Positions 9,620 to 26,918 of a stretch of 64,000 bases of DNA are shown here, piece by piece (the stretch's first letter is position 1; each line of letters opens with the position of its first letter). Both the position numbers and the translations under genes were made by a program. Under the pieces are notes generated by a model, which had not been told where the DNA came from, made no database searches, and saw nothing but the letters and a program-made list of their open reading frames with translations. This DNA comes from Phycisphaerae bacterium (GTDB taxonomy: Bacteria > Planctomycetota > Phycisphaerae > Phycisphaerales > UBA5793): assembly GCA_039794345.1 (NCBI GenBank), contig JBDIVQ010000002.1, positions 6,558 to 70,557 on the forward strand, written 5' to 3'.

Positions 9620-10786
9620 GTGTATGGCGGGCGAACGTACGGCTGCATTGCTGACCGGGGGGACAACGACATGCTAATCCATTATTCGCTCTCGATCGCA
9701 CTGACGCTCATGCAACCTCCTTCTCAGAATCAAGAACCTGTTCTCTCCAAGCTGACAGTTCAGCCGCTCAAGCAGATAGGCGACATCTGCGACGTTGCCG
9801 TCAAACGTGGAGGCTCTGAAGACGAGCCGATCGTCGTCGTGCTAGGCATGCTTGGCTTCACAACAGGTCAACTCGATCGTTTGCCAGCCATTCATTGCGA
9901 CGAACCGACCGCGTTTGCTGCCGCCATGAACGGGCGAATCGTCGAAGACAACGGACGACTCTGGTTCCTTCGAGGGCACGAACACTGGGCAACTGCGGCT
10001 GAGCTTTACGACGAGAGCGGACAACTCGTGTGGCGGGTCCCGCCTGATCCGAAATCCCCGGACTGGAAGGACGCGTCGGGTGTCGAGTTTGTGATACCGC
10101 TTCGGACTCCCGATGGCCTCGTCTTCGCGATCGGGTTCAACGGCACCGACACCATTGCGATGATCCTGCCGGGAAACGCCGAACCCCTTCGATACCGTTG
10201 GAAGCGCACAGGAAGTCAGGCCTTTGCGTGGGATATCGATGGCGACGGCGCCGATGAAATCGCTTACCCCACAGGCGAGGGCCTGGTCGTTCGTCGAGTT
10301 GACAGCACCGTCGTGACCACGATCGCACCGACGAAATCTGGATACCTCAATGATGTCTTCCCGACTCGCTTTCCTGGTCGAGACGGGGGCCCGGCCGTCT
10401 GCATCGGCTATTTCGACAAGAAGGCCGACCGGCAAAGATACGAGATATTCAGTCCCAAGGGAGAGCTGTTAGACTCGGTCGATCGTCCGGCGCCGTATCG
10501 ACCGGCGACGGAATTGGGTGTGAGCGGATACTACATTCGTACTGAGGAAATCGCCACGCAAGGCAATCAGGTCGTCGGTATCGAGACCAACCGCCTGCAT
10601 CTCTCGATGTATCACGACCGCGAACTGATCTCGTCAATATGGATCGATGCCGGTGGAAATGGTCGGACCCGTGTCTCCGGCGGCATGGCGCTATTTGAGC
10701 ATGATGGCGAACGGGGCGCCATCATCGGATTTGGTGCCAGGCTGTTCGTATACCGCATCGCCCTTCCGCCGCAGGCTGATCCGTGA
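9620..10786 (+). CDS. hypothetical protein with an FG-GAP/beta-propeller-like segment; candidate cognate immunity protein
   Basis: It lies directly downstream of the toxin tip in the same lower-GC patch. It contains WDIDGDGADEIAYPTGEGLVV (FG-GAP-like Ca-binding motif). Alternative start ATG 9671 (MLIHYSLSIALTLMQ). Confidence 0.5.
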   Translation: MYGGRTYGCIADRGDNDMLIHYSLSIALTLMQPPSQNQEPVLSKLTVQPLKQIGDICDVAVKRGGSEDEPIVVVLGMLGFTTGQLDRLPAIHCDEPTAFAAAMNGRIVEDNGRLWFLRGHEHWATAAELYDESGQLVWRVPPDPKSPDWKDASGVEFVIPLRTPDGLVFAIGFNGTDTIAMILPGNAEPLRYRWKRTGSQAFAWDIDGDGADEIAYPTGEGLVVRRVDSTVVTTIAPTKSGYLNDVFPTRFPGRDGGPAVCIGYFDKKADRQRYEIFSPKGELLDSVDRPAPYRPATELGVSGYYIRTEEIATQGNQVVGIETNRLHLSMYHDRELISSIWIDAGGNGRTRVSGGMALFEHDGERGAIIGFGARLFVYRIALPPQADP

Positions 10787-11139
10787 CCGGACTGAAGCGA
10801 TCCCATCTGCGGAAGGTCTCGGGCGTGTCGGGATTTACGGCACTGTTGAGCATGTCGGGCTCGGGCGGGTTGACATCCAGCGGTAGCGTCCGCCAAGTTG
10901 CGCACATCCGGGAAGGGTGACCTGCCCCCCCGTTTTATGTGCCAGATGTTGTGAGCGTCGGGATTGCGCGTTCTCTTGCCGTTGGGCGAAACGGGGGGCG
11001 GGGCGCAGCCCCGACGAGAGGCACGCCAAGCGTCGTGAAGCGGGAACGCCCCACCTCGCTCGTTCGCTGCTTCTTGCCCGTCGCCGCAGCCGTGCCGCCG
11101 CCAGCGTCCGTGCCGAGCGCCGCCTTCTCGCCCTCTCCG

Positions 11140-11181
11140 CGCGCAGTTCTCCCCATACTTTGCGTAGTTAACCAGTAGCGG
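11140..11181 (+). promoter_or_regulatory. copy 1 of a 42-bp bipartite conserved element (candidate element-specific promoter)
   Basis: cgcgcagttc-N7-acTTTGCGTAGTTAA-NN-agta-N-cgg. It matches 17070..17111 at 35 of 42 positions, and 4 of the 7 mismatches fall in the spacer between the two conserved blocks. It lies about 60 bp upstream of ORF 11243. Confidence 0.5.
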
Positions 11182-11242
11182 GCCGCGCGGCCTGCCGAGC
11201 CGAGCGTCTCGGACGCTGCCGCCCATTCTCCATCTTCGGAGC

Positions 11243-11488
11243 GTGCCGATGTACCTGCGCGAAGATGATCCCGATGAACTGACGGCAGGCGAGCGGCTCG
11301 ACGAGATTGGCGGCATTCTGGCCGGCGTCGTGCTCGCGATGCGTCGCCCCGGCGCCACAATGGCCACCGACAGCGAGGCCGCAGAATCCGCTGCGACATG
11401 CCTTGACCCTCGCCCATGCTCCGACACTCATCGTCCCACTGGTTTACGCGGCCGAGAGCCGCGGGAAGGAGATGACGCATGGGATTGA
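11243..11488 (+). CDS. small hypothetical protein at the head of the recombinase cassette
   Basis: MYLREDDPDELTAGERLDEIGGILAGVVLAMRR... has a plausible composition and overlaps the DUF2924 gene start by 10 nt. Confidence 0.4.
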   Translation: MPMYLREDDPDELTAGERLDEIGGILAGVVLAMRRPGATMATDSEAAESAATCLDPRPCSDTHRPTGLRGREPREGDDAWD

Positions 11489-12006
11489 ACGTGGGCAGAC
11501 TGCTCGCCGAACTGGACCGCATGACCGGCACGGAACTGCGCCGACGGTACGCCGAGGTCTTCGGCGAGGAATCGCGGTCGGGCAACCGGCAGTGGCTCAT
11601 CCGCCGAATCGCGTGGCGGATGCAGGCAATCGAGGAAGGCGACCTGCCCGAGCGGGCACGCCAACGGGCGATGGAGATCGCCAACGACGCTGACCTGCGG
11701 ATTCACGCGCCGCCACGCGGCGGCATCGCCGGCTCGATTGCCCCCGGCGCGGCGGGCCGCACCGTTACCGCTTCGGCACCCCCCGGAGGTGACGGCCTGC
11801 CGATGCCCGGCGCGTGGCTGACGCGGGAATACAAAGGCCGCTTGATCCGCGTCCGAGTGCTGCTGCGGGGCTTCGAGTACGAGGGCGAGACTTACCGCTC
11901 ACTTTCGGCGATCGCCAAAGTCGTCACCGGCGCCCACTGGAACGGCAACCTCTTCTTCGGCGTCGGGTCGGCGGCGAAGATGCGCAGCAAGGCGGTGCGG
12001 TCATGA
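11479..12006 (+). CDS. DUF2924-family protein (recombinase-associated)
   Basis: LAELDRMTGTELRRRYAEVFGEESRSGNRQWLIRRIAWRMQAIEEGDL...YRSLSAIAKVVTGAHWNGNLFFG matches the DUF2924 pattern. It has an ATGA overlap with the recombinase gene. Confidence 0.75.
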   Translation: MGLNVGRLLAELDRMTGTELRRRYAEVFGEESRSGNRQWLIRRIAWRMQAIEEGDLPERARQRAMEIANDADLRIHAPPRGGIAGSIAPGAAGRTVTASAPPGGDGLPMPGAWLTREYKGRLIRVRVLLRGFEYEGETYRSLSAIAKVVTGAHWNGNLFFGVGSAAKMRSKAVRS

Positions 12007-13565
12007 ACCAACGCGCCAAGTCCAAGCCGCTCAACCGCTGCGCCATCTACACCCGCAAGAGCAGTGAGGAAGGACTCGACCAGGAGTTCAATAGCCTCGA
12101 CGCCCAGCGCGAGTCGGGCGAACTGTATGTCAAGAGTCAGGCGTCCGAGGGCTGGACCTGCCTGCCCGACCGCTACGACGACGGCGGGTTCACCGGCGGC
12201 AACATGGAACGGCCGGCGCTCAAGCGGCTCATGAAGGACATTGAGGCAGGCCGCGTGGACACGGTGGTGGTCTACAAGGTCGATCGCCTCAGCCGCTCAC
12301 TGCTCGACTTCGCACGGATGATGCAGGTATTCGAACAGCAAAGCGTCGCGTTCGTGAGCGTCACACAGTCGTTCAATACCAGCGACTCGATGGGCCGGCT
12401 CATGCTCAACGTGCTGCTCTCGTTTGCCCAGTTCGAACGCGAGATCATCAGCGAGCGCACCCGCGACAAGATGGCCGCAGCCCGCCGCAAGGGCAAATGG
12501 GTGGGAGGACGGCCGATCCTCGGCTACGACATCGAGCCCAACGGCTTCCGACTCATGGTCAACAAGCAGGAGGCCCAGCGGGTCCGTGAGATCTTCGCCC
12601 TCTACCTCAAGCACGAGTCGCTCATCCCCACGGTGCGCGTGCTCAACGAACGCGGCTGGCTGACCAAGCAGTGGACATCGCGCAAGGGCAAGTCGCTCGG
12701 CGGCCGCCCATTCGAGAAGGGCAGCCTCTACGCGCTGCTCACCAATGTGGCCTACACCGGCAAGGTCAAGTTCAAGGACGACATCTACGAGGGCGAGCAC
12801 GAGGGCATCATCGATGCCGAGGTCTGGCAGAAGGCGCAGCACCTGCTCACGCGTAACGGCCGCACCGGCGGCTCGATCGTGCGCAACAAGTATGGGGCGA
12901 TTCTGAAGGGTCTGGTCCACTGCACCGCGTGTCAGCGCACCATGGGCCACACTTATTCGAGCACGAAGGGCCGCGTTGCCTACCGCTACTACGTGTGCAA
13001 CGGCGCGGCCAAGCGCGGCTGGGATTCCTGCCCGTCCAAGTCGATCCCTGCCGGCGAGATCGAGCGCATCGTCGTCGAGCAGGTGCGGGCGATCGGCAAA
13101 GACCCAAGGCTCGTCGAGGCCACGCTCAAGCAGATGCGACGGCAGAGCGACGAGTCCGCCCAGGAACTGCTCAAGGAGCGGACAACCGTGGAACGCCTAC
13201 TTCGGCGACATCACGCCGAGGTGGGCCAACTCGCGGCCGACGCGGCCAACCGCAACGGCGGCACGGCGGCGCGCCTCGGCGACCTGCACGAACGCATCCG
13301 CACGGGCGAGGAGCGCCTGGCCGAGATCAAGTCGCAGTTGGCCACTCTGGAATCCAGCCGGATCGACGAGATTGCAGTGGCGCAGGCGCTCGCCGAGTTT
13401 GACGGCGTGTGGGAGAACCTCGCGCCCAAGGAGCAGGCCCGCGTTCTGCACCTGCTCATCGAGCGCGTTGACTACGACGGCGCCAAGGGCAAGGTGGCGA
13501 TCACGTTTCGGCCCAGCGGCCTGCGAGCGCTGCCGGGTTCGACTGGACGAGGGGAGGCGGCATGA
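12003..13565 (+). CDS. large serine recombinase (integrase)
   Basis: N-terminal resolvase motif CAIYTRKSSEEGLDQEFNSLDAQRE (catalytic Ser). This is followed by a recombinase domain, a zinc ribbon (CTACQRTMGH...YYVCNGAAKRGWDSCPSKSI) and a C-terminal coiled coil. Start is ATG 12003, inside track ORF 11814..13565. Confidence 0.9.
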   Translation: MNQRAKSKPLNRCAIYTRKSSEEGLDQEFNSLDAQRESGELYVKSQASEGWTCLPDRYDDGGFTGGNMERPALKRLMKDIEAGRVDTVVVYKVDRLSRSLLDFARMMQVFEQQSVAFVSVTQSFNTSDSMGRLMLNVLLSFAQFEREIISERTRDKMAAARRKGKWVGGRPILGYDIEPNGFRLMVNKQEAQRVREIFALYLKHESLIPTVRVLNERGWLTKQWTSRKGKSLGGRPFEKGSLYALLTNVAYTGKVKFKDDIYEGEHEGIIDAEVWQKAQHLLTRNGRTGGSIVRNKYGAILKGLVHCTACQRTMGHTYSSTKGRVAYRYYVCNGAAKRGWDSCPSKSIPAGEIERIVVEQVRAIGKDPRLVEATLKQMRRQSDESAQELLKERTTVERLLRRHHAEVGQLAADAANRNGGTAARLGDLHERIRTGEERLAEIKSQLATLESSRIDEIAVAQALAEFDGVWENLAPKEQARVLHLLIERVDYDGAKGKVAITFRPSGLRALPGSTGRGEAA

Positions 13566-13972
13566 TGAGCGGTGGCTCGATGAAGGTCGAAATCGATGTG
13601 CAGTTTGATCGCGGGCGGCGTGGGCGCAAGCGGGCGACCACGGGAAGCCCACCGGATGTCCACCAGGCATCCACCGGCAGACTCCCTCGTGTGACCCGCT
13701 TGATGGCGCTGGCGATCCGCTTCGAGCGGCTGGTCCAGACCGGCGAAGTCGCCAGTTATGCCGAACTGGCCCGGCTCGGACGTGTCACCCGCGCCAGGCT
13801 GAGCCAGATCATGGCGTTTCTCCACCTGGCCCCTGACATTCAGGACGAGCTGCTGAATTTGCCGCCAGTCGCGAAGGGGCGGGATCCGATCACGGAGCGC
13901 GATGTTCGGCCCATTCTGGCAGAGGTGGTGTGGGAGCGGCAGCGGGGAATGTGGCGGGCCCACAGAGCCTGA
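13562..13972 (+). CDS. HTH DNA-binding protein of the recombinase cassette
   Basis: YAELARLGRVTRARLSQIMAFLHLAPDIQDELLNLP is an HTH motif seen next to such recombinases. ATGA overlap with the recombinase stop. Confidence 0.6.
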   Translation: MMSGGSMKVEIDVQFDRGRRGRKRATTGSPPDVHQASTGRLPRVTRLMALAIRFERLVQTGEVASYAELARLGRVTRARLSQIMAFLHLAPDIQDELLNLPPVAKGRDPITERDVRPILAEVVWERQRGMWRAHRA

Positions 13973-14057
13973 TGAAGTTCGACCAGAGACTCGGCAGCGG
14001 CGGCTCTCACTGGTATCCTTGCGTTGTCAGGACATCAGGATAGGAGTTCCCCGACCG

Positions 14058-16250
14058 ATGCAGGGATGCTTTGTGTTCGCGGCTCTTGAAGAGTGTCTCC
14101 ACTCCGGCAATGCCTTGGCAGAGTTGAAGTTCGTTGACACGATTGTCCGTCGCGCTGTGATCGCGGTGCACGATGAGCGAACAGCCACCTTCATCGAGCG
14201 GATGCTCAGCCGAGAATTCGGTGGTGTAGACCCCGAGATTCGCTTTGAGGCCAAGCTGGCAAACGATCTCGATGCCGAGGATTTGGAACTCCTGATTGAT
14301 CTCCCTGACCCGGCCAATCTCAGCGCAGGCTCGCACCCTGCGTGGCTGCGGCCAATCGCCGTCAGGGCGCACGAACTCCGAGACAAGGCGATAAACGCGG
14401 TGGAGTCGGCCCTTCGACCGATTGCCCCGCCCAGCGTTGTTCCGCCCGAGCCATCGCGCGGGTGGGTTGTTTGCAGCGATCCTGAGATGCACTTTGGAGA
14501 TACCCTGCGTGCGATTGAATCAAAGGGTGCCGTGGTTTTCGGCGAAGACGAACTGAGTTTCCTGCACAACCTTCTGGATCTGTACCAGCACACCCGGGGG
14601 AGCGAAGCACTGGCACTGAGCACCGTGCCGACAGCTTTGCTCACGACGACACAGGTCGTCCTTGCAAAACGTGATCTCTACCGGGCTGAAGTGCTGGCCA
14701 TGAACCTGGACGGTGGAGAATACACAACCAAGGATCCAACTTTCCTCGAAATCGCATGCTGCAATCGCATCCTCAGCGATCTTGCGGGGGAATTGAGCGC
14801 CCTCGGCCGTGCCGATGCTCGTAGCCCAGCCACAGTAGCAGCGAGCGTAATCGTGTCAGATCCGCTCGAGACGGCCATCGACTTCCTGGTTCATTGCATC
14901 AAACGGCATCGGCTCCTGTTTCTGTTCTCGGCAGAATGCGCCCGACGCAATCCGCTCGCAATACACAGCAAGACCGGTATCAGAGAGCGTGTGTGCAAGG
15001 AGGATGTGCTGGGATGGAAGCAGATGCTGGAGCATGTGGACTCCGAGGGTCAGTTCCTGTTCGATTACAGCTGGGCGATTGAGAACTTCGCGCAGGAGGC
15101 GATCGCCGCATTCGGCCCGGGAAAAGGGTCGCCGCCAACGACGGCTTCAAATGACGGATCGATTGTGGAGGTCGAGGGAGGTGGACTGCCGTATTGGGTA
15201 GTTGATGAATTCACGACGCATGAACTGGAGCGATCGAGTGACCTGATCTTCGATGCCTGCCGAGCCGTCACAGCGGCCGATTCGCGGAATCGGTTCGCCT
15301 CGCTTGTCGAAATGGCCATCGCGAGGGCTCACCCGGAGGGACACCCTCGCTGGTATAGCAGTGTGGTAGTGTGCTGGGAGTACCTGGAACTGCTTGATAC
15401 GCTGCTCGCGGCTGCGCAGCGGGCGTGCGTTGAGGTGCGCCGACCGCCCCAGCCAAACACCAGTGCCGGAGAATCCGCCACATCGCTCCATCCCAATCCC
15501 GAGATGGCTGAAGCAGAGCAGAAACTGGCGTCGCTCTACCTGCTGATGCTGTTAGCGCAGGCGTACTACAAGATACTCGAGTGCACCGTCTCGATGGCAG
15601 ACTGGTGTACCGCGCTCGATCTCGAACTCAACCAATCGTACCTTTGGGTCACAAAGAACCTCGCGAACCTGTTGAAGAACGACTCTGGCCTGAAGAAGGA
15701 CTTTCCCGAGCCGTTCGAGCCCTTGTTCCCCGACCTCTATCCGTCGACCATCCGCGATCATGAATGGGAGGACATGGTCGGGCCGGAGGCGGACCGGTTC
15801 CTGAGCACCGTGCAGCGTTACACGCTTGAACATGGAATCCGTGATCCAGACAAGGGATCAGCGGCGTGGGCATTCGTCGAGTGGTTTCGTCCGTCAATTG
15901 ACAACGCGATAAAGCAGGCCGAAGCCTACAACGCGCGGATGAAGCGTCACATGAAGGCAGCTCTCAAGCCATCAACGGAGGCAGCACCGGCGACGGGAGA
16001 TTCGCAAGCGACGGTCGGTGCACAACATGGGTGGCTGAAGGTGAGTCAGGTTGCGACGATCACTGGCTTGAATACCGGAGAGGTGAGCCGACTGTGCGAC
16101 CAGTGGGTCGATAGTGCTGGGCGGACGGGCTTAGCTAATAATGGAAAGACCAAGCGCGAGCGACGAATTGACCCATCTGCAATACCGGCGCTGGAATTGG
16201 AAATTCAGCGCACTCGGCAAGTCAAAATCGTGAAGAAGGCGAAGTACTGA
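14058..16250 (+). CDS. 730-aa hypothetical protein with no recognisable domain; possible C-terminal HTH
   Basis: ATG 14058 is preceded by aggataggag. GC is lower than in its neighbours. C-terminal GWLKVSQVATITGLNTGEVSRLCDQ looks HTH-like. A CGGGGC/GCCCCG hairpin follows the stop. Confidence 0.65.
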   Translation: MQGCFVFAALEECLHSGNALAELKFVDTIVRRAVIAVHDERTATFIERMLSREFGGVDPEIRFEAKLANDLDAEDLELLIDLPDPANLSAGSHPAWLRPIAVRAHELRDKAINAVESALRPIAPPSVVPPEPSRGWVVCSDPEMHFGDTLRAIESKGAVVFGEDELSFLHNLLDLYQHTRGSEALALSTVPTALLTTTQVVLAKRDLYRAEVLAMNLDGGEYTTKDPTFLEIACCNRILSDLAGELSALGRADARSPATVAASVIVSDPLETAIDFLVHCIKRHRLLFLFSAECARRNPLAIHSKTGIRERVCKEDVLGWKQMLEHVDSEGQFLFDYSWAIENFAQEAIAAFGPGKGSPPTTASNDGSIVEVEGGGLPYWVVDEFTTHELERSSDLIFDACRAVTAADSRNRFASLVEMAIARAHPEGHPRWYSSVVVCWEYLELLDTLLAAAQRACVEVRRPPQPNTSAGESATSLHPNPEMAEAEQKLASLYLLMLLAQAYYKILECTVSMADWCTALDLELNQSYLWVTKNLANLLKNDSGLKKDFPEPFEPLFPDLYPSTIRDHEWEDMVGPEADRFLSTVQRYTLEHGIRDPDKGSAAWAFVEWFRPSIDNAIKQAEAYNARMKRHMKAALKPSTEAAPATGDSQATVGAQHGWLKVSQVATITGLNTGEVSRLCDQWVDSAGRTGLANNGKTKRERRIDPSAIPALELEIQRTRQVKIVKKAKY

Positions 16251-16509
16251 AGCCGCACGGGGCTCGCTCGCCCCGATCAGGCATCGTGGCCGATCGCTGC
16301 GCGTCTGCTGCGCGAATGCTGCGCACGGCAGAAAGTTGTGTCGAGGGTTGCCTCGCAAGTGTTTATGATTGTGCGACTTGCGTTCAGTGTCTCTTTGCTG
16401 CGCATGCTGTTGAAATGTTGTAATTACGCGATGTTCTGTCGTCGTGCTTTCGCTTGCCCCAAACCGCGCATCGTGCGCGGCGATCCGTGCTGGATTTGGG
16501 GCGACAACC

Positions 16510-17067
16510 ATGCACTTCAACGGCCTCTTCGATTCCGCTACAACCGCGATCATCCTCGCTGCAGCCAGGTGGCTCTCCCGGCGACCCACGTTCACAGCGG
16601 CAGATGCTCCCGAACTCGCTCAGATCCTGGCGTGCCATCTCTGGCTGAAACGGGCACGGTTCGACCCACATCGCGGCGATTGGCCCACTTTCGCTCAGGT
16701 CGTCGTCGATCGGAGGGCCAAGTCCCTGCTTCGAGAGGCAAGGGCTGGGAAGCGACTGCCAAACCAACGTGTGCAATCTTTGCACCGCGAAGCGGCAGAT
16801 GAGAACGGTCGGCCGGTCGACCTGACTCAGAGCCTTCCTCACCCAACCAGCCGCGACGAAGTGAGACGTCGTGACCTGCAAATCGACATGCGCGAGTTGT
16901 CGCGGCTGGACCCGGCCGTCCGGCGCATGCTGGAGGAAGCCTGTCTCACCGGTCGGAAACCCACCCTGGCCCAGTTCAGACAGGCATCACGTCGCCTTGG
17001 CGACCGCGAGATTGCCCGTCTCCGCCAGCTCTTTGAGGACCAGGGACTTCGCGACTATCTCGCATGA
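16510..17067 (+). CDS. ECF-like sigma-70 family factor (divergent)
   Basis: Region-2-like ELAQILACHLWLKRARFDPHRGDWPTFAQVVVDRRAKSLLRE and region-4-like LSRLDPAVRRMLEEACLTGRKPTLAQF...IARLRQLFEDQGL. Start is ATG 16510. Confidence 0.5.
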   Translation: MHFNGLFDSATTAIILAAARWLSRRPTFTAADAPELAQILACHLWLKRARFDPHRGDWPTFAQVVVDRRAKSLLREARAGKRLPNQRVQSLHREAADENGRPVDLTQSLPHPTSRDEVRRRDLQIDMRELSRLDPAVRRMLEEACLTGRKPTLAQFRQASRRLGDREIARLRQLFEDQGLRDYLA

Positions 17068-17069
17068 GG

Positions 17070-17111
17070 CGCGCAGTTCGCCGCGCACTTTGCGTAGTTA
17101 AAGAGTAACGG
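17070..17111 (+). promoter_or_regulatory. copy 2 of the 42-bp bipartite conserved element
   Basis: Starts 3 nt after the sigma gene stop and ends 14 nt before the GGAGGA Shine-Dalgarno of ORF 17137. See copy 1. Confidence 0.5.
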
Positions 17112-17136
17112 CACAGTGATGCCCGGAGGACGCGCC

Positions 17137-17481
17137 ATGGCGGTCCAAGCGTATCGGTACACATTCAACGAGTCAGTCTCATTCTTCGATGTCCTCGCCC
17201 TTCTCGACGAGGCGATCGTCAACACTGAGAGCATCCACGGAACCGATCTGGTGCGTCTCGATGCCCGATTCGCCGAGGACTCCGCTCGCGGCGCTCTGGT
17301 GATCGACGCCACATCACCTGTGGGGCGGACGCTGAACCAGTTGCTCGTCGGCCTGGCTCGGCGCGAGTTCGGCGAGACGGGGTTTGCCGTGTCGCGGTGT
17401 CGGTCCGACATGCCTCGTCACCAAGGCAAACGATCAGGGCGGCGCAGACTGCCACGCCACCTGACCGCGCGGAAGGGATGA
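17137..17481 (+). CDS. hypothetical early protein
   Basis: ATG 17137 has GGAGGA 6 nt upstream. MAVQAYRYTFNESVSFFDVLALLDEAIVNTESIHGTDLVRLDARF... is protein-like. Confidence 0.5.
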   Translation: MAVQAYRYTFNESVSFFDVLALLDEAIVNTESIHGTDLVRLDARFAEDSARGALVIDATSPVGRTLNQLLVGLARREFGETGFAVSRCRSDMPRHQGKRSGRRRLPRHLTARKG

Positions 17482-17482
17482 G

Positions 17483-17806
17483 ATGACGCGAGGCCGCTCC
17501 GCCAAAGCGAGTCGCCGATCAGGACGGGGAGTGCCCAGCGAAGCTCTCGCGAGCATCCGCAGTGCGCCGGCCGTGCCGCGCGATGATGACCACGACGCCG
17601 ATCTGCCGGGCTGCCTCGTCGAGCAGGTGCAGTTCGAGTCCGACGAGTTCTGGCGCGAGTGGAAGCGGGTGCAGCGGGCATCGGGACATCTCGTGCCAGT
17701 CCTGCTGACTCGGCGCAGACGCTCGAAGTGGCTCATCGTGTTTGCCGCCGAAGATTTTTTCGCTCTGCTCGCGGCGATCCGAGCTGCGGAGGACAAGCCG
17801 CAGTGA
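17483..17806 (+). CDS. hypothetical early protein
   Basis: Abuts the previous gene and has a GTGA overlap with the primase gene. C-terminal FESDEFWREWKRVQRASGHLVPVLLTRRRRSKWLIVFAAEDFFALL. Confidence 0.45.
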   Translation: MTRGRSAKASRRSGRGVPSEALASIRSAPAVPRDDDHDADLPGCLVEQVQFESDEFWREWKRVQRASGHLVPVLLTRRRRSKWLIVFAAEDFFALLAAIRAAEDKPQ

Positions 17807-19923
17807 GCGCGAAGCACACGACTCCGAACGGCGTTATCCACGCGGCAGCCTTGGCGGCAAGCGAGGCAGAATTGTGCGTGCTGCCGGCAGAGCGCGACGG
17901 CGATGAGAAGCGGGTTGCACTGCGAACATGGAAGGCATATCAGACGCAACGGCCTTCTGAGGACGACGTCGATCGCTGGTTCCGCAACCACGACGGGGCA
18001 ATGTGCATCGTCTGCGGTGGCATATCGGGCAACCTGGAGATCATTGACTTCGACGGCGGCGGCGAAGCGATGGCGCCGTGGAGTAGCGCTGTCGAAGCTA
18101 TCGCACCGGATCTTCTCAACCGTCTGGTGATCGAGTCCACGCCGTCAGGCGGTTGCCACATCGTCTACCGCTGTGCCGAACCGGTCGCCGGAAACACCAA
18201 ACTCGCGCAGCGGCGGATCGAAGTCGAATCAGGCGATCCCGTCGTCATCGGCGGCAAAGAGTTCGTTCCGCGTCAGGAGCCCTCAGGCGCGTGGGTCGTC
18301 ACGCCGGTCCTGATCGAAACCCGCGGCGAGGGCGGCCTGTTCCTGTGCGCACCCTCCGACGGCTACCGGCTCATCGTGGGTGACTTGTGCAACCCGCCGG
18401 TGATCACTGCTGAAGAGCGCGAGATTCTCCTCGACTGCGCCCGGGCGCTCGACGAGATGCCCAAGCCCATCGTCGGTGCGTCGCCCGTCAGACCGCGAGA
18501 CGCCGCCGGCCCACTGCGGCCTGGTGACGACTTCAATCAGCGCGGCGATCCGCGGCCCATTCTGATCAAACACGGCTGGACGCTCGTCGTACCCGGCGAG
18601 AACGAGCATTGGTGCCGGCCCGGCAAGTCCCGCGGCACGAGCGCGACACTCAAGAATGGGGTCTTCTACGTCTTCTCCACCAACGCCGCACCGTTTGAGG
18701 CCGAGAAGGGCTACTCCCCGTTCGCGGTCTACGCCATGCTCGAGCACAACGGAGATTTCACCCAGGCGGCAGCAGCCCTGCGCGCCGAGGGATACGGCAC
18801 TCCTCCATCAAGCGCGCCGCAGCAGAAGAGCCGCCCGCCCGGCGCTGAAACGCAGGGGCAAACAACGACGCTGGTCCACATCCCGCTCTCAGTTGGCGCC
18901 CTCGTCGATACGCACCCGCGCCTGCGTCTGCCCGTGGTCGAGAACCTGCTGCGTGAAGGCGAGACGCTGAACATCGTCGCCCCTTCGAAGACGGGCAAGT
19001 CCTGGCTCACGCTCGATTTCGCCATCGCGGTCGCCACCGGGAATCCGTGGCTGGACCGCTACGAGACCGTCGCCGGCGATGTCCTCATCATCGACAACGA
19101 GCTGCACCCGGAAACGAGCGCCAACCGCATCCCCAAGGTTGCGCAGGCACGCGGCATCGCGATGGAGCGGATCAGGAACCACATCTTCGTCGAAAACCTG
19201 CGCGGCCGGTTGCAGGACATCTTCGGGCTTGAACCGTACTTCGCGGTCATTCCGCCACGGCGGTACAAGATCATCATCCTCGATGCGTTCTACCGCTTCA
19301 TGCCCGTCGGCGGCGATGAGAACGACAACGGGACGATGGCCAACATCTACAACGTAATCGATCGCTATGCCGCCCTCCTTGGCTGCTGCTTCGTGATGAT
19401 CCACCACTCGACGAAGGGCAACCAGTCCGGCAAGTCGGTCACAGATGTGGGGGCCGGCGCCGGCGCGCAGAGCCGGGCGGCGGATGCCCACCTCGTGTTG
19501 CGACCGCATGAAGAGCCGGGAGTGGTCGTGCTCGATGCGGCCGTGCGATCCTGGGCGCCCATCGAGCCAGTCTGCCTTCGCTGGTCGTTCCCGGTCTGGA
19601 ACGTGGATGAGTCGCTCGACCCGGCGAACCTCCGTAAGGAACGACCCGCGAAGCGCAAAGAGGAGAAGCCGTCTGAACCAATGACGGAGCCGCAGTGGAC
19701 CGTGGAGATGTTTGCAGAGGAGTTCTTCGGGCGCGAGCCCCTGAGCAAGGCGGAGATTCGCGTTGCAACGCAGGGCAGACCTGGCCTGTCCTGGCGCAAG
19801 ACCAATGACCTGCTGGAGATCGCCGAGAAGCGCGGACTCGTGCATCGATGGACCGTTGGGAAGTCGCACAAGGTGGTGTATTCGACCCAGTCGCAGCCAC
19901 TCTACGGGGAGGATGGACCATGA
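17803..19923 (+). CDS. bifunctional primase-polymerase (Prim-Pol) fused to a RepA/AAA_25-like helicase ATPase
   Basis: Prim-Pol-like N-terminus (KRVALRTWKAYQTQRPSEDDVDRWF...MCIVCGGISGNLEIIDFD...ESTPSGGCHIVYRC). C-terminal Walker A (NIVAPSKTGKSWLTLD) and Walker B (GDVLIIDNE). The GTG start at 17803 is inferred. Confidence 0.8.
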   Translation: MSAKHTTPNGVIHAAALAASEAELCVLPAERDGDEKRVALRTWKAYQTQRPSEDDVDRWFRNHDGAMCIVCGGISGNLEIIDFDGGGEAMAPWSSAVEAIAPDLLNRLVIESTPSGGCHIVYRCAEPVAGNTKLAQRRIEVESGDPVVIGGKEFVPRQEPSGAWVVTPVLIETRGEGGLFLCAPSDGYRLIVGDLCNPPVITAEEREILLDCARALDEMPKPIVGASPVRPRDAAGPLRPGDDFNQRGDPRPILIKHGWTLVVPGENEHWCRPGKSRGTSATLKNGVFYVFSTNAAPFEAEKGYSPFAVYAMLEHNGDFTQAAAALRAEGYGTPPSSAPQQKSRPPGAETQGQTTTLVHIPLSVGALVDTHPRLRLPVVENLLREGETLNIVAPSKTGKSWLTLDFAIAVATGNPWLDRYETVAGDVLIIDNELHPETSANRIPKVAQARGIAMERIRNHIFVENLRGRLQDIFGLEPYFAVIPPRRYKIIILDAFYRFMPVGGDENDNGTMANIYNVIDRYAALLGCCFVMIHHSTKGNQSGKSVTDVGAGAGAQSRAADAHLVLRPHEEPGVVVLDAAVRSWAPIEPVCLRWSFPVWNVDESLDPANLRKERPAKRKEEKPSEPMTEPQWTVEMFAEEFFGREPLSKAEIRVATQGRPGLSWRKTNDLLEIAEKRGLVHRWTVGKSHKVVYSTQSQPLYGEDGP

Positions 19924-19947
19924 ATGTCTGGTCGCCAGTTCGTCGTT

Positions 19948-20139
19948 TTCGCTCGTGCGCGCGCTCGCTGAAGCGCTTCGGCGAAGCGCTCAAGCGAAGG
20001 AAGCGCTCAAGCGAAGACCGGTTCGAGGGCTTCGCTCGTGCGCGCGCGCACCCCCCCATACCCCCCCGGGGCGTGCGCTCGAGCGACGCCCCGGGGTTTC
20101 GCTCGTGCGCGCGCGCTCCAGCGAAGCGCTCAAGCGAAG
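19948..20139. repeat. GC-rich direct-repeat and palindrome block
   Basis: ttcgctcgtgcgcgcgc occurs 3 times (19948, 20031, 20098). gaagcgctcaagcgaag occurs 3 times (19983, 20000, 20123). A 33-bp inverted repeat, CCCCGGGGCGT...ACGCCCCGGGG, lies at 20064..20096. Confidence 0.85.
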
Positions 20140-20288
20140 AAAGCGATCCCACACACTTGGCCGCCCTCGCGGGTATCGCGACCACGAGTCCGCCGGCGGA
20201 AATGAGCACACAGCCCATGACAGAACTGACAATACCGACGACACCGATCGCAGCCTCTGTGGATCACCGTTGCCGCGCCCGCAGCGCG

Positions 20289-20608: not shown

Positions 20609-21979
20609 ATGAGCGCAAGTGTTGATGACACCTTGGTTTGCCGCCTGGCCGGCGAGTTGTGGGCGGTGTTCGCCCCATGGCGCGGGCCGTGGAGCGGCGG
20701 TGGCGCGACGATGGCGTATCTGGCTCGGCGGTCGTTTCGGTCCGGCGCGGGTCTGCGATGGCGGCATGCCGGGCGCGATCGGGATGAGCGGGATGAGAAT
20801 GTGGAAGCGCTGGGCCGGCTTGAGCGGCGTGGGCTGCTCACGCGCCGCGTCGAGAAGACGAAGGTGATCGCCACCAGACTGCTCGACGCCGGGATCGAGC
20901 GGGCGTGCTCATTGGCCGGCGCGCCGTGCTGGTCCGAGGGCCGGGCCGTCTGCGAGCGCCTTGCCGCCATCGATGATGACGCGGCCACGATGACGCACCT
21001 TGGCACCCGGTGGACCGCGGAGTGGGCGTTGGCGGGCACGCCGCCGCATTGGGGCCAGTGCGGCAACGACGAGACCGGGCGCGCCAATCGCTCGCTTCTG
21101 TCTGTTCTTGAAGGGCGGGCGGTTCCTGCGCTGGTGCGCGGGTGGCTCATCAGCGGGGCCGATCTGCATGGGCGGGTGTGGTACGCACTCACCGCCGCCG
21201 GTCGCGCGGCGCTGACGGAAGCGCCGGCCGAAGCGCCATCGGAGATCGAAGGCGACAAGGACTGCGCGCTGGCTTGGCGCGAGGGGGCCCACGCCATGCA
21301 AGTCCGCCTCGCCGCGGCGCCACGCTCGGAGCGCGAGATCGGCCTGCTGCCATTGCCGGTCCACGGCGGGCCGAACGTGGGCGGCGACGTTGGCGCACGT
21401 GGCGATGTGCCCACGGTGGGCGGCCGAGGAGGCAACCTCGCCGCACATCTCGCAACAGGGGGCAACGTCGGCGGCGATGAAACCGCGAGTGGCCGCCCGT
21501 CGGCGGAACTAGGTCGCGATGGCCTACGCGCGCTTAGTCGCGGCAATGACCTCGCCCAGGTTCGCGATCTCCGCGCGGAGGTTGGCGACCTCCTCGTGAA
21601 GCGCGGCGAGTTCCGGGAGGACGAGATCGCGGATGGCCCGGCGGGTGTTCAGGCTGGTCGCGACGATGTTTTGGAAGCGGCACCGGGTCTCGTTCCTGCA
21701 GTCGGACAACTCTCGTCCATTGCGAGTGAACTCCGTCGCGACACCGTCCGCGTCGATTCGGAACCCGTCCCGCTTCAGTATCCTCGCGGCTGGCTTGCGG
21801 ATGGGAAAGGCAGCGATCACTGTCCCGTCGTGCAGCGAAGCGGCGTGGTAGTGCATCTTCCGTCGCCGTGGTCGCCTCATCAATCACCTCCATCTGCTTT
21901 CCGGCCGCCGCCTGCGGCCGCGACCGAGGACAGCATGTCCGCTCACCCGGTCTGTCAACATTTGAGGAGTCCACAATGA
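20609..21979 (+). CDS. hypothetical protein with two winged-helix-like segments (candidate iteron-binding initiator); 3' end uncertain
   Basis: ATG 20609 has GGAGGG upstream. ALGRLERRGLLTRRVEKTKVIATRLLDAG and LSVLEGRAVPALVRGWLISGADLHGRVWYALTAAGRAAL look like winged-helix units. The frame stays open to 21979 and ends in an ATGA overlap with the methylase. Third-position GC drops after about 21520, where a convergent ORF is also open. Confidence 0.5.
   Translation: MSASVDDTLVCRLAGELWAVFAPWRGPWSGGGATMAYLARRSFRSGAGLRWRHAGRDRDERDENVEALGRLERRGLLTRRVEKTKVIATRLLDAGIERACSLAGAPCWSEGRAVCERLAAIDDDAATMTHLGTRWTAEWALAGTPPHWGQCGNDETGRANRSLLSVLEGRAVPALVRGWLISGADLHGRVWYALTAAGRAALTEAPAEAPSEIEGDKDCALAWREGAHAMQVRLAAAPRSEREIGLLPLPVHGGPNVGGDVGARGDVPTVGGRGGNLAAHLATGGNVGGDETASGRPSAELGRDGLRALSRGNDLAQVRDLRAEVGDLLVKRGEFREDEIADGPAGVQAGRDDVLEAAPGLVPAVGQLSSIASELRRDTVRVDSEPVPLQYPRGWLADGKGSDHCPVVQRSGVVVHLPSPWSPHQSPPSAFRPPPAAATEDSMSAHPVCQHLRSPQ
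21524..21856 (-). CDS. hypothetical protein with a C-terminal coiled coil (alternative to the 3' end of ORF 20609..21979)
   Basis: MHYHAASLHDGTVIAAFPIRKPAARILKRDGFRIDADGV...LVLPELAALHEEVANLRAEIANLGEVIAATKRA is protein-like. By eye, its third codon positions are more GC-rich than those of the overlapping + frame. Confidence 0.35.
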   Translation of the reverse strand: MHYHAASLHDGTVIAAFPIRKPAARILKRDGFRIDADGVATEFTRNGRELSDCRNETRCRFQNIVATSLNTRRAIRDLVLPELAALHEEVANLRAEIANLGEVIAATKRA

Positions 21980-23385
21980 AAGTCGAACTGCGGCCGGTGG
22001 CTGAGATCAGACCCTACGAGAAGAACCCTCGCCTCAACGACAATGCCGTTGCGGCGGTGGCCAACAGCATCCAGGCGTTCGGCTGGCGGCAGCCGATCGT
22101 GGTCGATGGCGAGGGCGTGATCATCTGCGGGCACACAAGATGGAAAGCGGCGCAGCGCCTCGGGCTGGAGAAGGTGCCGGTCCATGTCGCGACCGATCTC
22201 ACGCCCGAGCAGGTGCGGGCGTATCGCATCGCCGACAACAAGAGCGGCGAACTGGCGGAGTGGAACATGGAACTGCTGCCGCTGGAGATGGCCGAACTCC
22301 AGGGCGCCGGCATCGACTGGTCGAGCCTTGGCTTCAGCGCCGACGATCTGGCGAAGATCTTCGATCCCGGCGTGCAGGATGGTCTGACCGATCCGGATGC
22401 GATTCCCGAACCGCCCGATGAGCCGATCACGAAACGCGGCGACCTGTGGATTCTCGGCGAGCACCGTCTGCTCTGCGGCGACAGCGCGAGCGCGCAGGAT
22501 GTCGATCGATTGCTTGACGGCCAGCCGATCCATCTGGTCAACACGGATCCGCCATACAACGTGAAGGTCGAGCCGCGCAGCAACAACGCGATCGCGGCGG
22601 GTGTGACTTCGTTCGCGCGGCGGGCCGATCTCCAGTGCGAGCGCTCGACCACAGAGCGCGGCAAGAAGGACCGTGAACGCAAGGCCAAGCGCACGCATCA
22701 CCAGAGTTTCGACGTCGCCCGCCAGGGGGAGAAGAAGCGCACGACGAAGAAGATGCGCGCCAAGGACCGGCCGCTGGAGAATGACTTCGTCAGCGAGGAG
22801 GCGTTCGAGGAGATGCTCGATGCGTGGTTCGGCAACATGGCGCGCGTCCTCATCCCCGGCGGCGGCTTCTACATCTGGGGCGGCTACGCGAACCTCGGCA
22901 ACTACCCGGGTCCGTTGAAGCGTGCTGGTCTGTACTTCAGCCAGGGGATCATCTGGGACAAACAGCATCCGGTGCTCACCCGCAAGGACTACATGGGCGC
23001 GTTCGAGATCGCGTACTACGGCTGGAAGTTGGGCGCAGCGCACCGGTTCTTCGGACCCAACAACGTGTCCGACCTCTGGCATGTGAAGAAGGTGAACCCG
23101 GCGTCAATGTGTCATTTGACTGAGAAGCCGGTCGAGTTGGCCGTGCGGGCCATGCAGTACTCATCGCGCGTCGGCGAGAATGTGCTTGATCTCTTTGGGG
23201 GATCGGGTTCGACTCTGATCGCCGCCGAGCAGACCGGGCGCCGTGCGTACCTGATGGAGATCGATCCGGCCTACTGCGATGTCATCGTCGATCGATACCA
23301 GCGATTCTCAGGCAAGCCCGCCGTGCTTGAAGGCACGGGCGAGTCGCCGATCCCGATGAAGCCGCGCGAGGAGAAGATGCGGTGA
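21976..23385 (+). CDS. ParB-like nuclease domain fused to a DNA methyltransferase (N6-A/N4-C type)
   Basis: N-terminal ParB-N (IRPYEKNPRLNDNAVAAVANSIQAFGWRQPIVVDGEGVIICGHTRWKAA). Catalytic DPPY (LVNTDPPYNVKV). AdoMet site (VLDLFGGSGSTLIAAEQTGRRAYLMEID). Confidence 0.88.
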   Translation: MKVELRPVAEIRPYEKNPRLNDNAVAAVANSIQAFGWRQPIVVDGEGVIICGHTRWKAAQRLGLEKVPVHVATDLTPEQVRAYRIADNKSGELAEWNMELLPLEMAELQGAGIDWSSLGFSADDLAKIFDPGVQDGLTDPDAIPEPPDEPITKRGDLWILGEHRLLCGDSASAQDVDRLLDGQPIHLVNTDPPYNVKVEPRSNNAIAAGVTSFARRADLQCERSTTERGKKDRERKAKRTHHQSFDVARQGEKKRTTKKMRAKDRPLENDFVSEEAFEEMLDAWFGNMARVLIPGGGFYIWGGYANLGNYPGPLKRAGLYFSQGIIWDKQHPVLTRKDYMGAFEIAYYGWKLGAAHRFFGPNNVSDLWHVKKVNPASMCHLTEKPVELAVRAMQYSSRVGENVLDLFGGSGSTLIAAEQTGRRAYLMEIDPAYCDVIVDRYQRFSGKPAVLEGTGESPIPMKPREEKMR

Positions 23386-23447
23386 TCGGTTGTGACGTGA
23401 ACTATGTGTCTGGTGGCGGGCCGGGGCGTGCAATGAACCCACCCGGT

Positions 23448-23870
23448 TCACACGAGTTCGCCGAGCGCCAGCACTCGATCGGCGTACGGCCCGCTGCGCA
23501 GCGCGTTGACCAGCCGCTGATCAGCGGTGACCGCCCGGACCTTCTCCCGCGCGGCCAGGCAGATGTAGAGACTGTCGTAGACGGTGCGGTCTGTCTCGAC
23601 GGCGAATCGAACCGCGTCCGGAAGCAGTGGAAGGGACTCGACGATCTCCACCGGATAGGCGGACAAGTCGCTCGCCATCTGCTCAGCTTCCTCGGCGGAA
23701 AGGTCGCCGCGCCGAACGGCCTTCCACGTCACGGCTGCGACCTCGATCCACAGCAGGTCTGGAGCGATGAGCCGGTACGATTCGCTCAGCAGTTCGCGGG
23801 CCTGCGGCGAGCCGGTCTCGGGAATGAGCCACTTCAGCGCCACGCTGGCATCCACGACGAGCGTCTTCAC
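23448..23870 (-). CDS. vapC: PIN-domain toxin VapC
   Basis: VKTLVVDASVALKWLIPE...YRLIAPDLLWIEVAAV...TVYDSLYICLAAR carries the PIN acidic residues. The GTG start has a GTGA overlap with the upstream antitoxin. Confidence 0.8.
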   Translation of the reverse strand: MKTLVVDASVALKWLIPETGSPQARELLSESYRLIAPDLLWIEVAAVTWKAVRRGDLSAEEAEQMASDLSAYPVEIVESLPLLPDAVRFAVETDRTVYDSLYICLAAREKVRAVTADQRLVNALRSGPYADRVLALGELV

Positions 23871-24247
23871 CGCTGTCGTTCCTCGCGGAGCAGTTCGGTC
23901 GAGTCGGGCAGGCGGCGTCCCTTGAGCCGCTCGTGCCACGCGTCGGTGATGGCGCGGGCCTCGTCGAAGTTGCGATGGGCATCGCGCCGCAGCGCCATGT
24001 GCAGTTCCTGCTGGAGCGAACGGCCGGAGCGCCGGGCCCGATCCTTGAGCACCTCCAGAACATCGGGCGCGACGTCGCGGAGCAGGAGGTTGGCGGACTC
24101 AGCCTGCTTTCTCGAAGCAGCCCCGTTGCCTGACATGGCTTTGGGTGCGCCGCCGCTCTTGACCTTCCGGCTGGGAGAACCGGCGGACGTGCGCTTGGTG
24201 GAACGGCCGCTGCGGCCGGTCTTGGCTCGGGTTCGACGGGTGGTCAT
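23867..24247 (-). CDS. vapB: RHH antitoxin (VapB/FitA-like) with a basic N-terminal extension
   Basis: ANLLLRDVAPDVLEVLKDRARRSGRSLQQELHMALRRD is a ribbon-helix-helix motif. An alternative start at ATG 24136 would remove the K/R/S-rich extension. Confidence 0.7.
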   Translation of the reverse strand: MTTRRTRAKTGRSGRSTKRTSAGSPSRKVKSGGAPKAMSGNGAASRKQAESANLLLRDVAPDVLEVLKDRARRSGRSLQQELHMALRRDAHRNFDEARAITDAWHERLKGRRLPDSTELLREERQR

Positions 24248-24386
24248 GCCCGATGATATCGGTCTGATACCGGCTCGGCAATGCCGCCGGCTCTCGTGCT
24301 GCCCGGCGGCGCCTTGGATCGACTGCCGCAGACACAGCCGCGGCGGCTGGCGCTGCGGCCGTGAATGGTGGAGGCGAGTTGGCGGG

Positions 24387-24809
24387 CTACTCGGCGGTTG
24401 GTGGCGCTCCGGGCGCGCTCGGGTCGCCCGCCTCTTCCGGCCCCTTCTCGCGCAGGGCGTGGTACTCGATCATGGCGTCCTCGTAGACGAAGTCGCTCGC
24501 GGCGATGTGCTTGCGGTTGCGCGCGGGCACGATGCACGACCGCTCCTTGAGGAACGCGATGGCCACCGCCACCTGCGACCACGGCGGCATGTTCGCTTCG
24601 TCGCCGTCGCCCACCTTCGCCCGCACGTCCTCCATCGTGAACGACGCGTTGCCGAGTTGTTCGATGGCGTAGGCGACGTCGTCGTAGACCTGCTTGGTGC
24701 AGGCGTGCTCGTAGGGCGTGCCGCGCCTGGGCACGACGCGGCGCAGCAGCGCGCCGCTCGGGCCATCGACGATGAAAGTCTCATCGAGTTGCTGCGGCAT
24801 TGGCATCAC
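24387..24809 (-). CDS. hypothetical protein
   Basis: Protein-like composition (FIVDGPSGALLRRVVPRRGTPYEHACTKQVYDDVAYAIEQLG...). Belongs to a co-directional minus-strand block. Confidence 0.5.
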   Translation of the reverse strand: MMPMPQQLDETFIVDGPSGALLRRVVPRRGTPYEHACTKQVYDDVAYAIEQLGNASFTMEDVRAKVGDGDEANMPPWSQVAVAIAFLKERSCIVPARNRKHIAASDFVYEDAMIEYHALREKGPEEAGDPSAPGAPPTAE

Positions 24810-24975
24810 CTCCTTCCCGCTTCGTGCGCGGCGGCGAGTAGACGTTCAGGCAGGTGGCGCAGCGGACGCGCTGGCCGTCCTCGATCCAGACGAGGCGGTC
24901 AATGCATCGCTCCGCACAGCGCGGGCATGCGTCCTCGATGGCGACGTGGTAGTCGCTGTTGGCGGCGGCCGTCAT
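24781..24975 (-). CDS. small zinc-ribbon protein
   Basis: MTAAANSDYHVAIEDACPRCAERCIDRLVWIEDGQRVRCATCLNVY has two CxxC pairs. Start is the internal ATG at 24975 of track ORF 24781..25203. Confidence 0.5.
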   Translation of the reverse strand: MTAAANSDYHVAIEDACPRCAERCIDRLVWIEDGQRVRCATCLNVYSPPRTKREGGDANAAATR

Positions 24976-25196: not shown

Positions 25197-25199
25197 CGA

Positions 25200-26285: not shown

Positions 26286-26357
26286 CGTGCTGCTCCTTTC
26301 GTGGTTGCAGCGGTTGGTGAATGTGCGACGGTGACCTTCACCGCCGCGCGTCGTTCA

Positions 26358-26594: not shown

Positions 26595-26621
26595 GGCGTC
26601 TCCGTTTCGCGTGGTGGTCGT

Positions 26622-26876: not shown

Positions 26877-26918
26877 GGTGGTGGTCCCTTCCCGCGTGGT
26901 CGCGGTTGGTGGTGCGTT

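Follow-up and report, generated by a model that had tools for sequence, protein, structure and literature searches.

A bipartite repeat at the head of two prophage operons

Which factor reads a pair of nearly identical bipartite sites that head two operons of the same prophage? The question arises from a stretch of 64,000 nucleotides (the window; contig JBDIVQ010000002.1 of the Phycisphaerae bacterium assembly GCA_039794345.1, positions 6,558 to 70,557) that holds a prophage between ~11.14 kb and ~46.2 kb, with + strand genes up to ~46.2 kb. The prophage is a temperate tailed phage with a serine integrase in a Planctomycetota (Phycisphaerales-type) genome. An initial annotation had described a 42-bp bipartite repeat, one copy of which abuts a gene for a sigma-like protein, and had proposed a phage-encoded sigma factor with its own promoters. 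The best explanation, and in our judgement a fairly probable one, is that the two repeats are the cognate promoters of this protein, here named SigL. That the sites are promoters, that SigL is their reader, that a feedback loop connects them and that sigL is repressed are points we infer.

The repeat has the composition first described, with copies at 11140-11181 and 17070-17111 that consist of CGCGCAGTTC, a 7-nt spacer, ACTTTGCGTAGTTAA and 10 further bases. Seven of the 42 positions differ, four of them in the spacer (TCCCCAT versus GCCGCGC) and three past TTAA (CCAGTAGCGG versus AGAGTAACGG). Identity reaches one base further 5' than had been noted (GCGCGCAGTTC; 11139 and 17069): copy 1 reads GCGCGCAGTTC TCCCCAT ACTTTGCGTAGTTAA CCAGTAGCGG from 11139, and copy 2 reads GCGCGCAGTTC GCCGCGC ACTTTGCGTAGTTAA AGAGTAACGG from 17069. 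The bipartite pattern, with up to three mismatches, was matched exactly twice in the window and never in 100 dinucleotide-preserving shuffles; the 15-mer alone was also matched twice, against 0.12 matches expected. Scans of both strands of the 64 kb with a position weight matrix (PWM) built from 10 instances, and with mismatches allowed, returned no third copy, and in particular none before the terminase or structural genes. The blocks of the window lineage also hold a direct repeat, GCGYAGTT, at a spacing of 21 bp, together with a weak partial dyad (CGCAGT / ACTTTGCG). Both were considered as conserved features of the motif and rejected, being absent from other lineages.

Each of the two copies lies upstream of a + strand operon, as the initial annotation had stated. 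Copy 2 begins 1 nt past the TGA (17065-17067) of sigL, which corresponds to the 3 nt counted earlier from 17070, and is followed by a Shine-Dalgarno (SD) sequence, GGAGG, at 17125-17129, 14 nt past 17111, with an ATG at 17137. The sigma gene had been called divergent; in fact it shares the + strand with the genes around it, and copy 2 stands directly behind its stop codon. The view that neither block resembles a sigma-70 consensus was borne out, since no sigma-70-type promoter match was found in 10500-18000. We refer to copy 1 and copy 2 as P_A and P_B; their -35-like and -10-like blocks are listed in Table 1, and transcription starts are predicted at ~11172-11178 and ~17102-17108, respectively.

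Conservation of the motif among close relatives

Related loci and elements that were compared with the window carry L numbers (L001, L003 and so on). SigL has only 15 close homologues. The one annotated at its source is labelled Phycisphaerales, and those that could be mapped to NCBI assemblies come from metagenome-assembled genomes (MAGs) of Planctomycetota/Phycisphaerales. The contigs of these homologues show the gene order of the window, and motif copies occupy both positions in every related element. Across 15 distinct instances (eight of the copy-1 type and seven of the copy-2 type), GCGCGCAGT, GCGTA, TTAA and GTA are invariant, and the spacer and the downstream leader vary. In L019, the SigL of which is 38% identical, the motif is kept with a single change in the first block.

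A scan with the exact pattern of 185,579 species genomes, one per species, returned nine stretches in four Planctomycetota MAGs, with two or three per MAG, all at element positions of the prophage family or in two decayed remnants. With two copies in 64 kb and nine stretches among all these genomes, the motif is not a dispersed genomic repeat, the finding that according to the initial annotation would have spoken against a promoter. The numbers per MAG, together with the restriction to element positions or remnants, also rule out a repeat of the repetitive extragenic palindromic (REP) or miniature inverted-repeat transposable element (MITE) kind. A scan of IMG/VR with the motif found nothing, and none of 50,697 phage records matched 11-20 kb by megablast.

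Several variants were seen among these relatives. Copy 2 of L023 (at about 204) bears a spacer of the copy-1 type (CTCCCCAC), which suggests sequence exchange (gene conversion) between promoter copies. L018 contains at 5798-5853 an extra 55-bp left-end fragment of the copy-1 type, 1178 bp upstream of copy 1 of the full element (6976). A locus represented in L012 (1208-1238) and L015 (5659-5689) retains copy 1, the first downstream gene g79 and only the first 38 codons of the DUF2924 gene. The L018 fragment and the L012/L015 locus appear to be left over from earlier insertions or from elements that have decayed.

Lineage-specific versions in diverged elements

More distant sigma relatives, 22-28% identical to SigL and carried by elements with a G+C content (GC) of 32-48%, are found at the corresponding position of other elements. 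They adjoin a serine recombinase and precede a small gene, followed by primase/helicase or ParB-methylase, terminase and portal genes; in all lineages examined, the small gene past the sigma gene is homologous to p114, its counterpart in the window (E=1e-10 to 1e-14). A possible homology of g79 to the small genes past the second copy elsewhere was not significant (E ~0.6).

In the DNA available, four lineages, with sigma identity down to ~26% and a GC of 44-65%, each hold exactly two copies of their own bipartite version. The motif of the window lineage is GCGCGCA-N17-CGTA. That of L024 is CTCCGACA-N16-CGTATGTATG, on the + strand right past the sigma stop codon and on the - strand reading into a small gene plus recombinase, and L027 has TGCGACA-N16-CGTGAGTA on the + strand past sigma and on the - strand reading into a 71-aa gene plus recombinase. 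In L026, GTGTGACA-N15-CGATATACATACAG lies past sigma and ahead of a 71-aa gene that is followed by sigma. The post-sigma copy of L030 is GCGCGCA-N17-CGTAGGTATCCAGTAG, L031 also has a post-sigma copy, and in L028 a copy lies directly upstream of the sigma gene. One copy always stands right past the sigma stop codon, as seen in L001, L003, L006, L010, L019, L022, L023, L030, L031, L024, L026 and L027; the other heads either a small-gene/recombinase operon or the sigma operon.

Every copy points into its downstream operon, whichever strand that operon occupies, the two copies of L024 and of L027 lying on opposite strands, and the motif is found 25-85 nt upstream of start codons with SD sequences. 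The sites are thus placed as promoters of extracytoplasmic function (ECF) sigma factors are, upstream of their presumed targets and oriented with them, including the operon of the sigma gene itself in L026 and L028. Promoters of ECF sigma factors are bipartite, with a group-specific -35 element, a spacer of 16+/-1 nt and a -10 element of the CGT type (PMC3426412), an example being the ECF41 promoter TGTCACA-n16-CGTC (PMC3426412). The motif has this geometry, with a lineage-specific -35-like block, 15-17 nt and CGTA or a variant of it; GTAA in L031 and CGAT in L026 deviate from the CGT type. Its -35 core is alike across hosts of 44-68% GC, which fits a specificity factor carried by the element and not by the host. 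A promoter recognised by a factor that the element itself encodes would be expected to show these traits: orientation with the downstream operon, a constant place behind the sigma gene and a sequence that differs between lineages.

SigL as a divergent homologue of ECF-like sigma factors

SigL scores 24.0 bits against Pfam Sigma70_r2, equal to the cutoff of 24 (23.7 bits for the longer open reading frame, ORF), which identifies a sigma-2 domain. Against the NCBIfam model TIGR02937 (sigma70-ECF) it reaches 25.4 bits and fails the threshold of 42.9, which its relatives P0166 (67.2 bits), P0165 (60.2), P0167 (53.3) and P0169 (44.7) pass; relatives of SigL align to this model across both domains (positions 11-160 of 165). 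Because of this shortfall, with relatives that pass, SigL is classed as a very divergent homologue of the ECF-like sigma family and not as a threshold-passing member. Its own sequence makes only a thin case for a sigma factor, which homology within the family decides. An alignment of the SigL family with the TIGR02937-passing relatives by hhalign extended over the full length with 99.5% probability (E=2.5e-23), and distant relatives match the PHROGs 1740 and 351, 'RNA polymerase sigma factor'; SigL itself matches no PHROG. A PDB profile match links SigL to RpoE/SigE (R. sphaeroides SigE region 2, E=0.039).

An AlphaFold (AF2) model is confident only for an N-terminal three-helix domain (predicted local distance difference test, pLDDT, ~90), for which the best Foldseek matches are sigma region 2 with template modelling (TM) scores of 0.5-0.66, weak matches that all have E>1. 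The C-terminal half is modelled with low confidence (pLDDT ~60-67), and SigL has no direct match to Pfam sigma-4 (r4). The most conserved stretch of the protein is a C-terminal helix-turn-helix (HTH; …SRRLGDREIARLR…FEDxGLRDYL), a putative sigma-4-like HTH with SRRLGDREIARLR as its recognition helix; the full-length hhalign match to relatives that align across both domains lends it indirect support. A profile of the close family collected at least 1164 cluster representatives of ~185-200 aa. Among 52 sampled members, 47 matched Sigma70_r2, 10 Sigma70_ECF and six Sigma70_r4_2, and many matched generic HTH models. A metagenome scan yielded only three short loci, and a scan of IMG/VR with the sigma alignment yielded nothing.

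Copy 1 at the left end of the element

Similarity between related elements starts ~3-5 nt upstream of GCGCAGT in copy 1, and the left flanks beyond it are unrelated host DNA (L001, an ABC/RND transporter; L003, Pirin/HxlR; L010, an RND pump). Since the flanks are unrelated and the shared similarity sets in just before GCGCAGT, copy 1 forms the leftmost part of the integrated element. As the first sequence inside the element, it may overlap the P' half-site of the integrase attachment (att) site and have a dual role, which could matter for control of the integrase operon. A search near the presumed right end, at ~46.2 kb, for a direct or inverted partner of copy 1 gave a best match of 22/38, which is noise, and the right junction is placed approximately.

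These results support the earlier proposal in part. In its favour are the conserved blocks and variable spacer over the 15 instances, the confinement of the motif to the element family, the lineage-specific pairs of copies in diverged relatives, the ECF-like family membership of the neighbouring protein and the ECF-type block geometry. What needs correcting, besides the orientation of the gene, is the dismissal of any link to an att site, given where copy 1 is placed in the element.

The leader between copy 1 and g79 has features of its own. A palindrome at 11203-11217, AGCGTC-TCG-GACGCT, is perfectly conserved, and a hairpin at 11228-11241, CTCC...GGAG, would pair with the SD sequence; its stem is kept across relatives and its loop varies.

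The region upstream of sigL

The 16291-16502 region that precedes sigL carries operator-like repeats (Table 1) and, at 16456-16502, an inverted repeat just before the start codon. The repeat CGAxxGCTGCGC is shared by the window and L001 (L001 9782-9816). L006 instead has TGTACACC three times at 9880-9934, and L003 and L010 have a palindrome, GTGTCAGCnGCTGACAC, at about 9888-9981. A different element, GTGAGCCCTCSGTGAT, is conserved upstream of sigma in L024, L026 and L027, and L024 and L026 also have an inverted repeat there that occludes the SD sequence (GAGACGCCTC...GAGGTGTCTC). The region was searched for a conserved promoter common to the relatives; none emerged, the repeats being lineage-specific. 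In these respects it looks like a variable immunity region. From the lineage-variable operator-like repeats and the hairpin at the start codon, sigL is probably the repressed node of the system.

Proposed regulatory circuit

In the circuit we propose, RNA polymerase carrying SigL would read both copies, with GCGCGCA(GTT) serving as the -35-like element, a spacer of 17 nt, CGTA(GTTAA) as the -10-like element and a start region of the CCAGTA type. P_A, at the left end of the prophage, would drive g79, the DUF2924 gene, the serine integrase and the following gene p136. P_B, a few nt past the end of sigL, would drive p114 and the primase-helicase, followed by the long series of + strand genes. If transcription from P_A continued over the cargo slot into sigL, positive feedback could result; this feedback would be direct in L026 and L028, where a copy lies upstream of the sigma operon, and in the window lineage would need 5.3 kb of read-through. 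With sigL repressed by default, production of SigL would switch on the recombination and replication modules together.

Some observations weigh against this circuit. Copy 1 sits where the P' half-site of a serine integrase must be. Taken alone, SigL only reaches the sigma-2 cutoff, and the missing direct sigma-4 match, Foldseek E values above 1 and low C-terminal pLDDT do not strengthen the assignment. The motif is near-unchanged within the window lineage despite a SigL identity of 38% in L019, so co-variation of sigma and promoter is visible only between distant lineages. The position of sigL, 5.3 kb downstream of P_A and past both a variable cargo slot and a 260-nt gap, makes feedback by read-through uncertain. 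Moreover, shared operators of the lambda PL/PR type have the same signature, two look-alike early promoters on either side of a regulator gene.

A broader generalization would make the sigma gene, the promoter behind its stop codon and the p114-like gene the master switch of an undescribed group of temperate phages with serine integrases and varied GC. One sigma factor and exactly two promoters would couple excision/integration to replication independently of the host; in the Planctomycetota members the integrase promoter would lie inside the P' half-site and be gated by integrase binding at attL/attP. We regard this generalization as speculative and on balance doubtful.

Alternative readings of the two sites

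The sites could be cis-regulatory with a reader other than SigL-RNA polymerase: promoter-operators like lambda PL/PR, used by the host RNA polymerase under a repressor or activator of the element. In a variant, the sigma-like protein itself could act through its HTH as an ordinary DNA-binding regulator. Two look-alike sites that head two early operons, and which in L024 and L027 stand in divergent orientation on either side of the regulator gene, do recall the immunity layout of lambda; the direct repeat GCGYAGTT, with its copies 21 bp apart, and the weak dyad of the window lineage would suit a bound regulator, and the sigma assignment of SigL is weak from its own sequence alone. However, conservation of the direct repeat and of the dyad does not extend to other lineages, and each promoter has a single site where repressor control would typically use an operator array. 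Arrays that resemble operators do occur upstream of sigL, where they vary between relatives. No sigma-70-like -35/-10 lies beneath the motif, and the spacing and the CGT element fit ECF promoters. We consider this account unlikely, though not negligibly so.

Two further accounts take the sites out of transcription initiation. As recombinase sites, copy 1 would be attL or the P' half-site and copy 2 a second binding site or pseudo-att site, or the pair would mediate deletion or inversion of the 5.9-kb recombinase-sigma segment. Copy 1 does lie at the exact left end and adjoins the serine integrase operon, serine-integrase half-sites are themselves bipartite, and the 55-bp remnant of L018 lies upstream of a full element. 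But copy 2 lies inside the element, and where a partner half-site upstream of it would be expected there is sigma coding sequence; no other direct or inverted copy occurs in the window, the presumed right end included; and the dyad expected of an att site is weak and partial in the window lineage and absent from L024, L026 and L027. The orientation of the copies tracks gene direction, being direct in the window lineage and L026 and inverted in L024 and L027, and in L026 and L028 the copy precedes the sigma gene and not a recombinase gene. Nor do the repeats bound a mobile cassette, as the cargo between p136 and sigL differs in each relative. We rate a recombinase role as very improbable. An RNA-level role (a sigma terminator or a shared 5' leader element), or a neutral relic in which a duplication was homogenised by gene conversion, appears to us the least credible of all. 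In its favour, some copy-2 versions pair the -35 block with the spacer (in L003, GCGCGCAG-TT-CTGCGCGC, -13.5 kcal/mol), and the copy-1 spacer in copy 2 of L023 hints at exchange; yet most copies fold no better than shuffled sequence, copy 1 has no hairpin, and no Rfam family was found over 9-21 kb at E<=1. Conserved blocks around a variable spacer, across lineages down to 26% protein identity, argue instead for selection at the DNA level.

Comparison with known systems

If the sites are SigL promoters, one close parallel is with ECF (group IV) sigma factors, which share the small two-domain protein (sigma-2 plus, in SigL, a putative sigma-4-like HTH), the bipartite promoter with a spacer of ~16+/-1 nt and a very small regulon adjoining the sigma gene. 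In some lineages a copy precedes the operon that contains the sigma gene, which implies autoregulation, as in that group. In contrast to them, SigL is prophage-encoded with no recognisable anti-sigma factor, falls below the family threshold (25.4 versus 42.9 bits), has one promoter that begins immediately past its own stop codon, and has predicted targets in integration and replication modules, not among envelope-stress genes.

Xpf, the positive control factor of the Bacillus subtilis prophage PBSX, is listed as a sigma-2/sigma-4 group IV protein (PMC10141391). Like SigL in the proposed circuit, it is a prophage-encoded ECF-like sigma factor that acts as a positive switch, itself presumably held off by a repressor. 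Xpf activates the late (structural/lysis) operon of PBSX, whereas the motif here precedes the recombinase and early/replication operons and has no copy before the terminase or structural genes. In the lambda PL/PR system, as here, two similar regulatory regions head two early operons, and the divergent flanking recurs in L024 and L027; here, however, there is no sigma-70-type promoter, operator array or cross-lineage dyad, and the gene between the sites encodes a sigma homologue and not a CI-type repressor. Lytic-phage sigma factors, such as T4 gp55, SPO1 gp28 and phiEco32 gp36, serve mostly middle and late genes of virulent phages. They too are promoter-specificity subunits supplied by a virus, while SigL belongs to a temperate phage and is predicted to be wired to integrase and replication operons. 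In Tn916, Orf7 and Orf8 activate their own promoter, Porf7, with read-through into xis and int at the end of the element and the repressor Orf9 upstream (PMC5812530). Element-encoded regulators, an own promoter and read-through to recombination genes would be common to both. The two differ in kind (Tn916 is a conjugative transposon, the present element a tailed prophage), in their integrases (tyrosine in Tn916, serine here) and in promoter number (the single Porf7 against two copies here).

Element-encoded ECF-like sigma activators are therefore already known, as PBSX Xpf illustrates, and no concept is overturned. What would be new is the Planctomycetota prophage host group, a predicted two-promoter regulon that pairs integrase and replication operons, and the placement of a promoter directly on the 3' end of the sigma gene, as well as the fact that diverged lineages repeat this arrangement. 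If the SigL reading is true, a single phage-made sigma factor turns on the integrase and replication operons from two matched promoters, which would explain how prophages are controlled in Planctomycetota, a group with almost no characterised phage biology. The sigma family has at least 1164 cluster representatives, and the members examined head the early operon of a mobile element with their own predicted promoter directly after them; synthetic biology could draw on the family for compact, orthogonal sigma/promoter pairs. It would also give an annotation rule for such elements: look for the motif right past the sigma stop codon, then for its twin.

Other features of the prophage and its surroundings

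Table 1. Coordinates of the sites and genes discussed in the text, numbered from the first nucleotide of the window.
Feature	Coordinates	Strand	Description
Copy 1 (P_A)	11139-11178	+	-35-like GCGCGCAGTT 11139-11148; -10-like ACTTTGCGTAGTTAA 11157-11171, CGTA 11163-11166
Copy 1 start region	11172-11178	+	CCAGTAG, conserved
g79	11249-11488	+	79 aa, first gene past copy 1; conserved in all relatives; no Pfam or PHROG match
DUF2924 protein	11479-12006	+	PF11149, E=8.7e-40
Large serine recombinase (integrase)	12003-13565	+	Resolvase + Recombinase + Zn_ribbon_recom
p136	13562-13972	+	136 aa, conserved, follows integrase; PHROG 14161, labelled 'recombinase'
Variable cargo slot	14058-16250	+	730-aa protein in the window, without family match
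Putative sigL control region	16291-16502	+	operator-like repeats CGAxxGCTGCGC (16291, 16313) and GCGCATGCTG (16400)
sigL	16510-17067	+	185 aa, divergent ECF-like (group IV type) sigma factor
Copy 2 (P_B)	17069-17108	+	-35-like block 17069-17078; -10-like block 17087-17101, CGTA 17093-17096
Copy 2 start region	17102-17108	+	AGAGTAA
p114	17137-17481	+	114 aa, first gene past copy 2; ferredoxin-like fold (predicted by model)
Small protein	17483-17806	+	weakly RusA-like
Primase-polymerase/AAA_25 helicase	~17803-19923	+
ParB-methylase	21868-23385	+
Large terminase	27848-30232	+	gpA-type
Portal	33723-35231	+	lambda-type
Capsid protein	35185-37194	+

In the operon behind P_A, the ATG of the integrase overlaps the stop codon of the DUF2924 gene (ATGA), and p136 is a candidate directionality factor. 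The slot between the p136 gene and the sigma gene is a cargo hotspot that differs by relative, with a PIN+HTH_17 protein plus proteins of 404 and 387 aa in L003, proteins of 287 and 590 aa in L006 (the latter with a faint QueC match) and an HI_0787_N protein in L010. The p114 family, of ~90-114 aa, gives a confident ferredoxin-like model (pLDDT 85). Examined as a possible anti-sigma factor, p114 showed a generic ferredoxin-like fold and no informative structural match. The family is also found without a sigma gene in L029, a Myxococcales phage-like region, where an array of GGGACAG repeats precedes it.

A 660-nt gap follows the primase-helicase gene. It contains three copies of ...TTCGCTCGTGCGCGCGC at 19935-20148, spaced by 83 and 67 nt, as well as a 36-mer present twice and a 27-nt inverted repeat. 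These repeats resemble iterons and make the gap a candidate replication origin. Further along the prophage there is a 1441-aa ORF without Pfam match (23382-27707). A fusion of a trypsin-like protease with eight Sel1 repeats (30437-32275) is encoded in the interval from terminase to portal.

Just past the last + strand phage gene, a cluster on the - strand (46361-63924) resembles a class-1 DISARM-type defence system. It encodes a PLD-domain protein, a DUF1998/MZB protein, a large helicase, a cytidine-deaminase-domain protein and a 636-aa protein of no assigned function, together with an Eco57I/MmeI-type methyltransferase and an SNF2 helicase. To the left of the prophage, a tRNA-Asn gene (2960-3034) is followed by a gene for a 1829-aa RHS-repeat protein (3452-8941) and one for a small protein with a weak phospholipase-A2 match (8987-9562); the 2960-9562 segment may be a polymorphic-toxin island.

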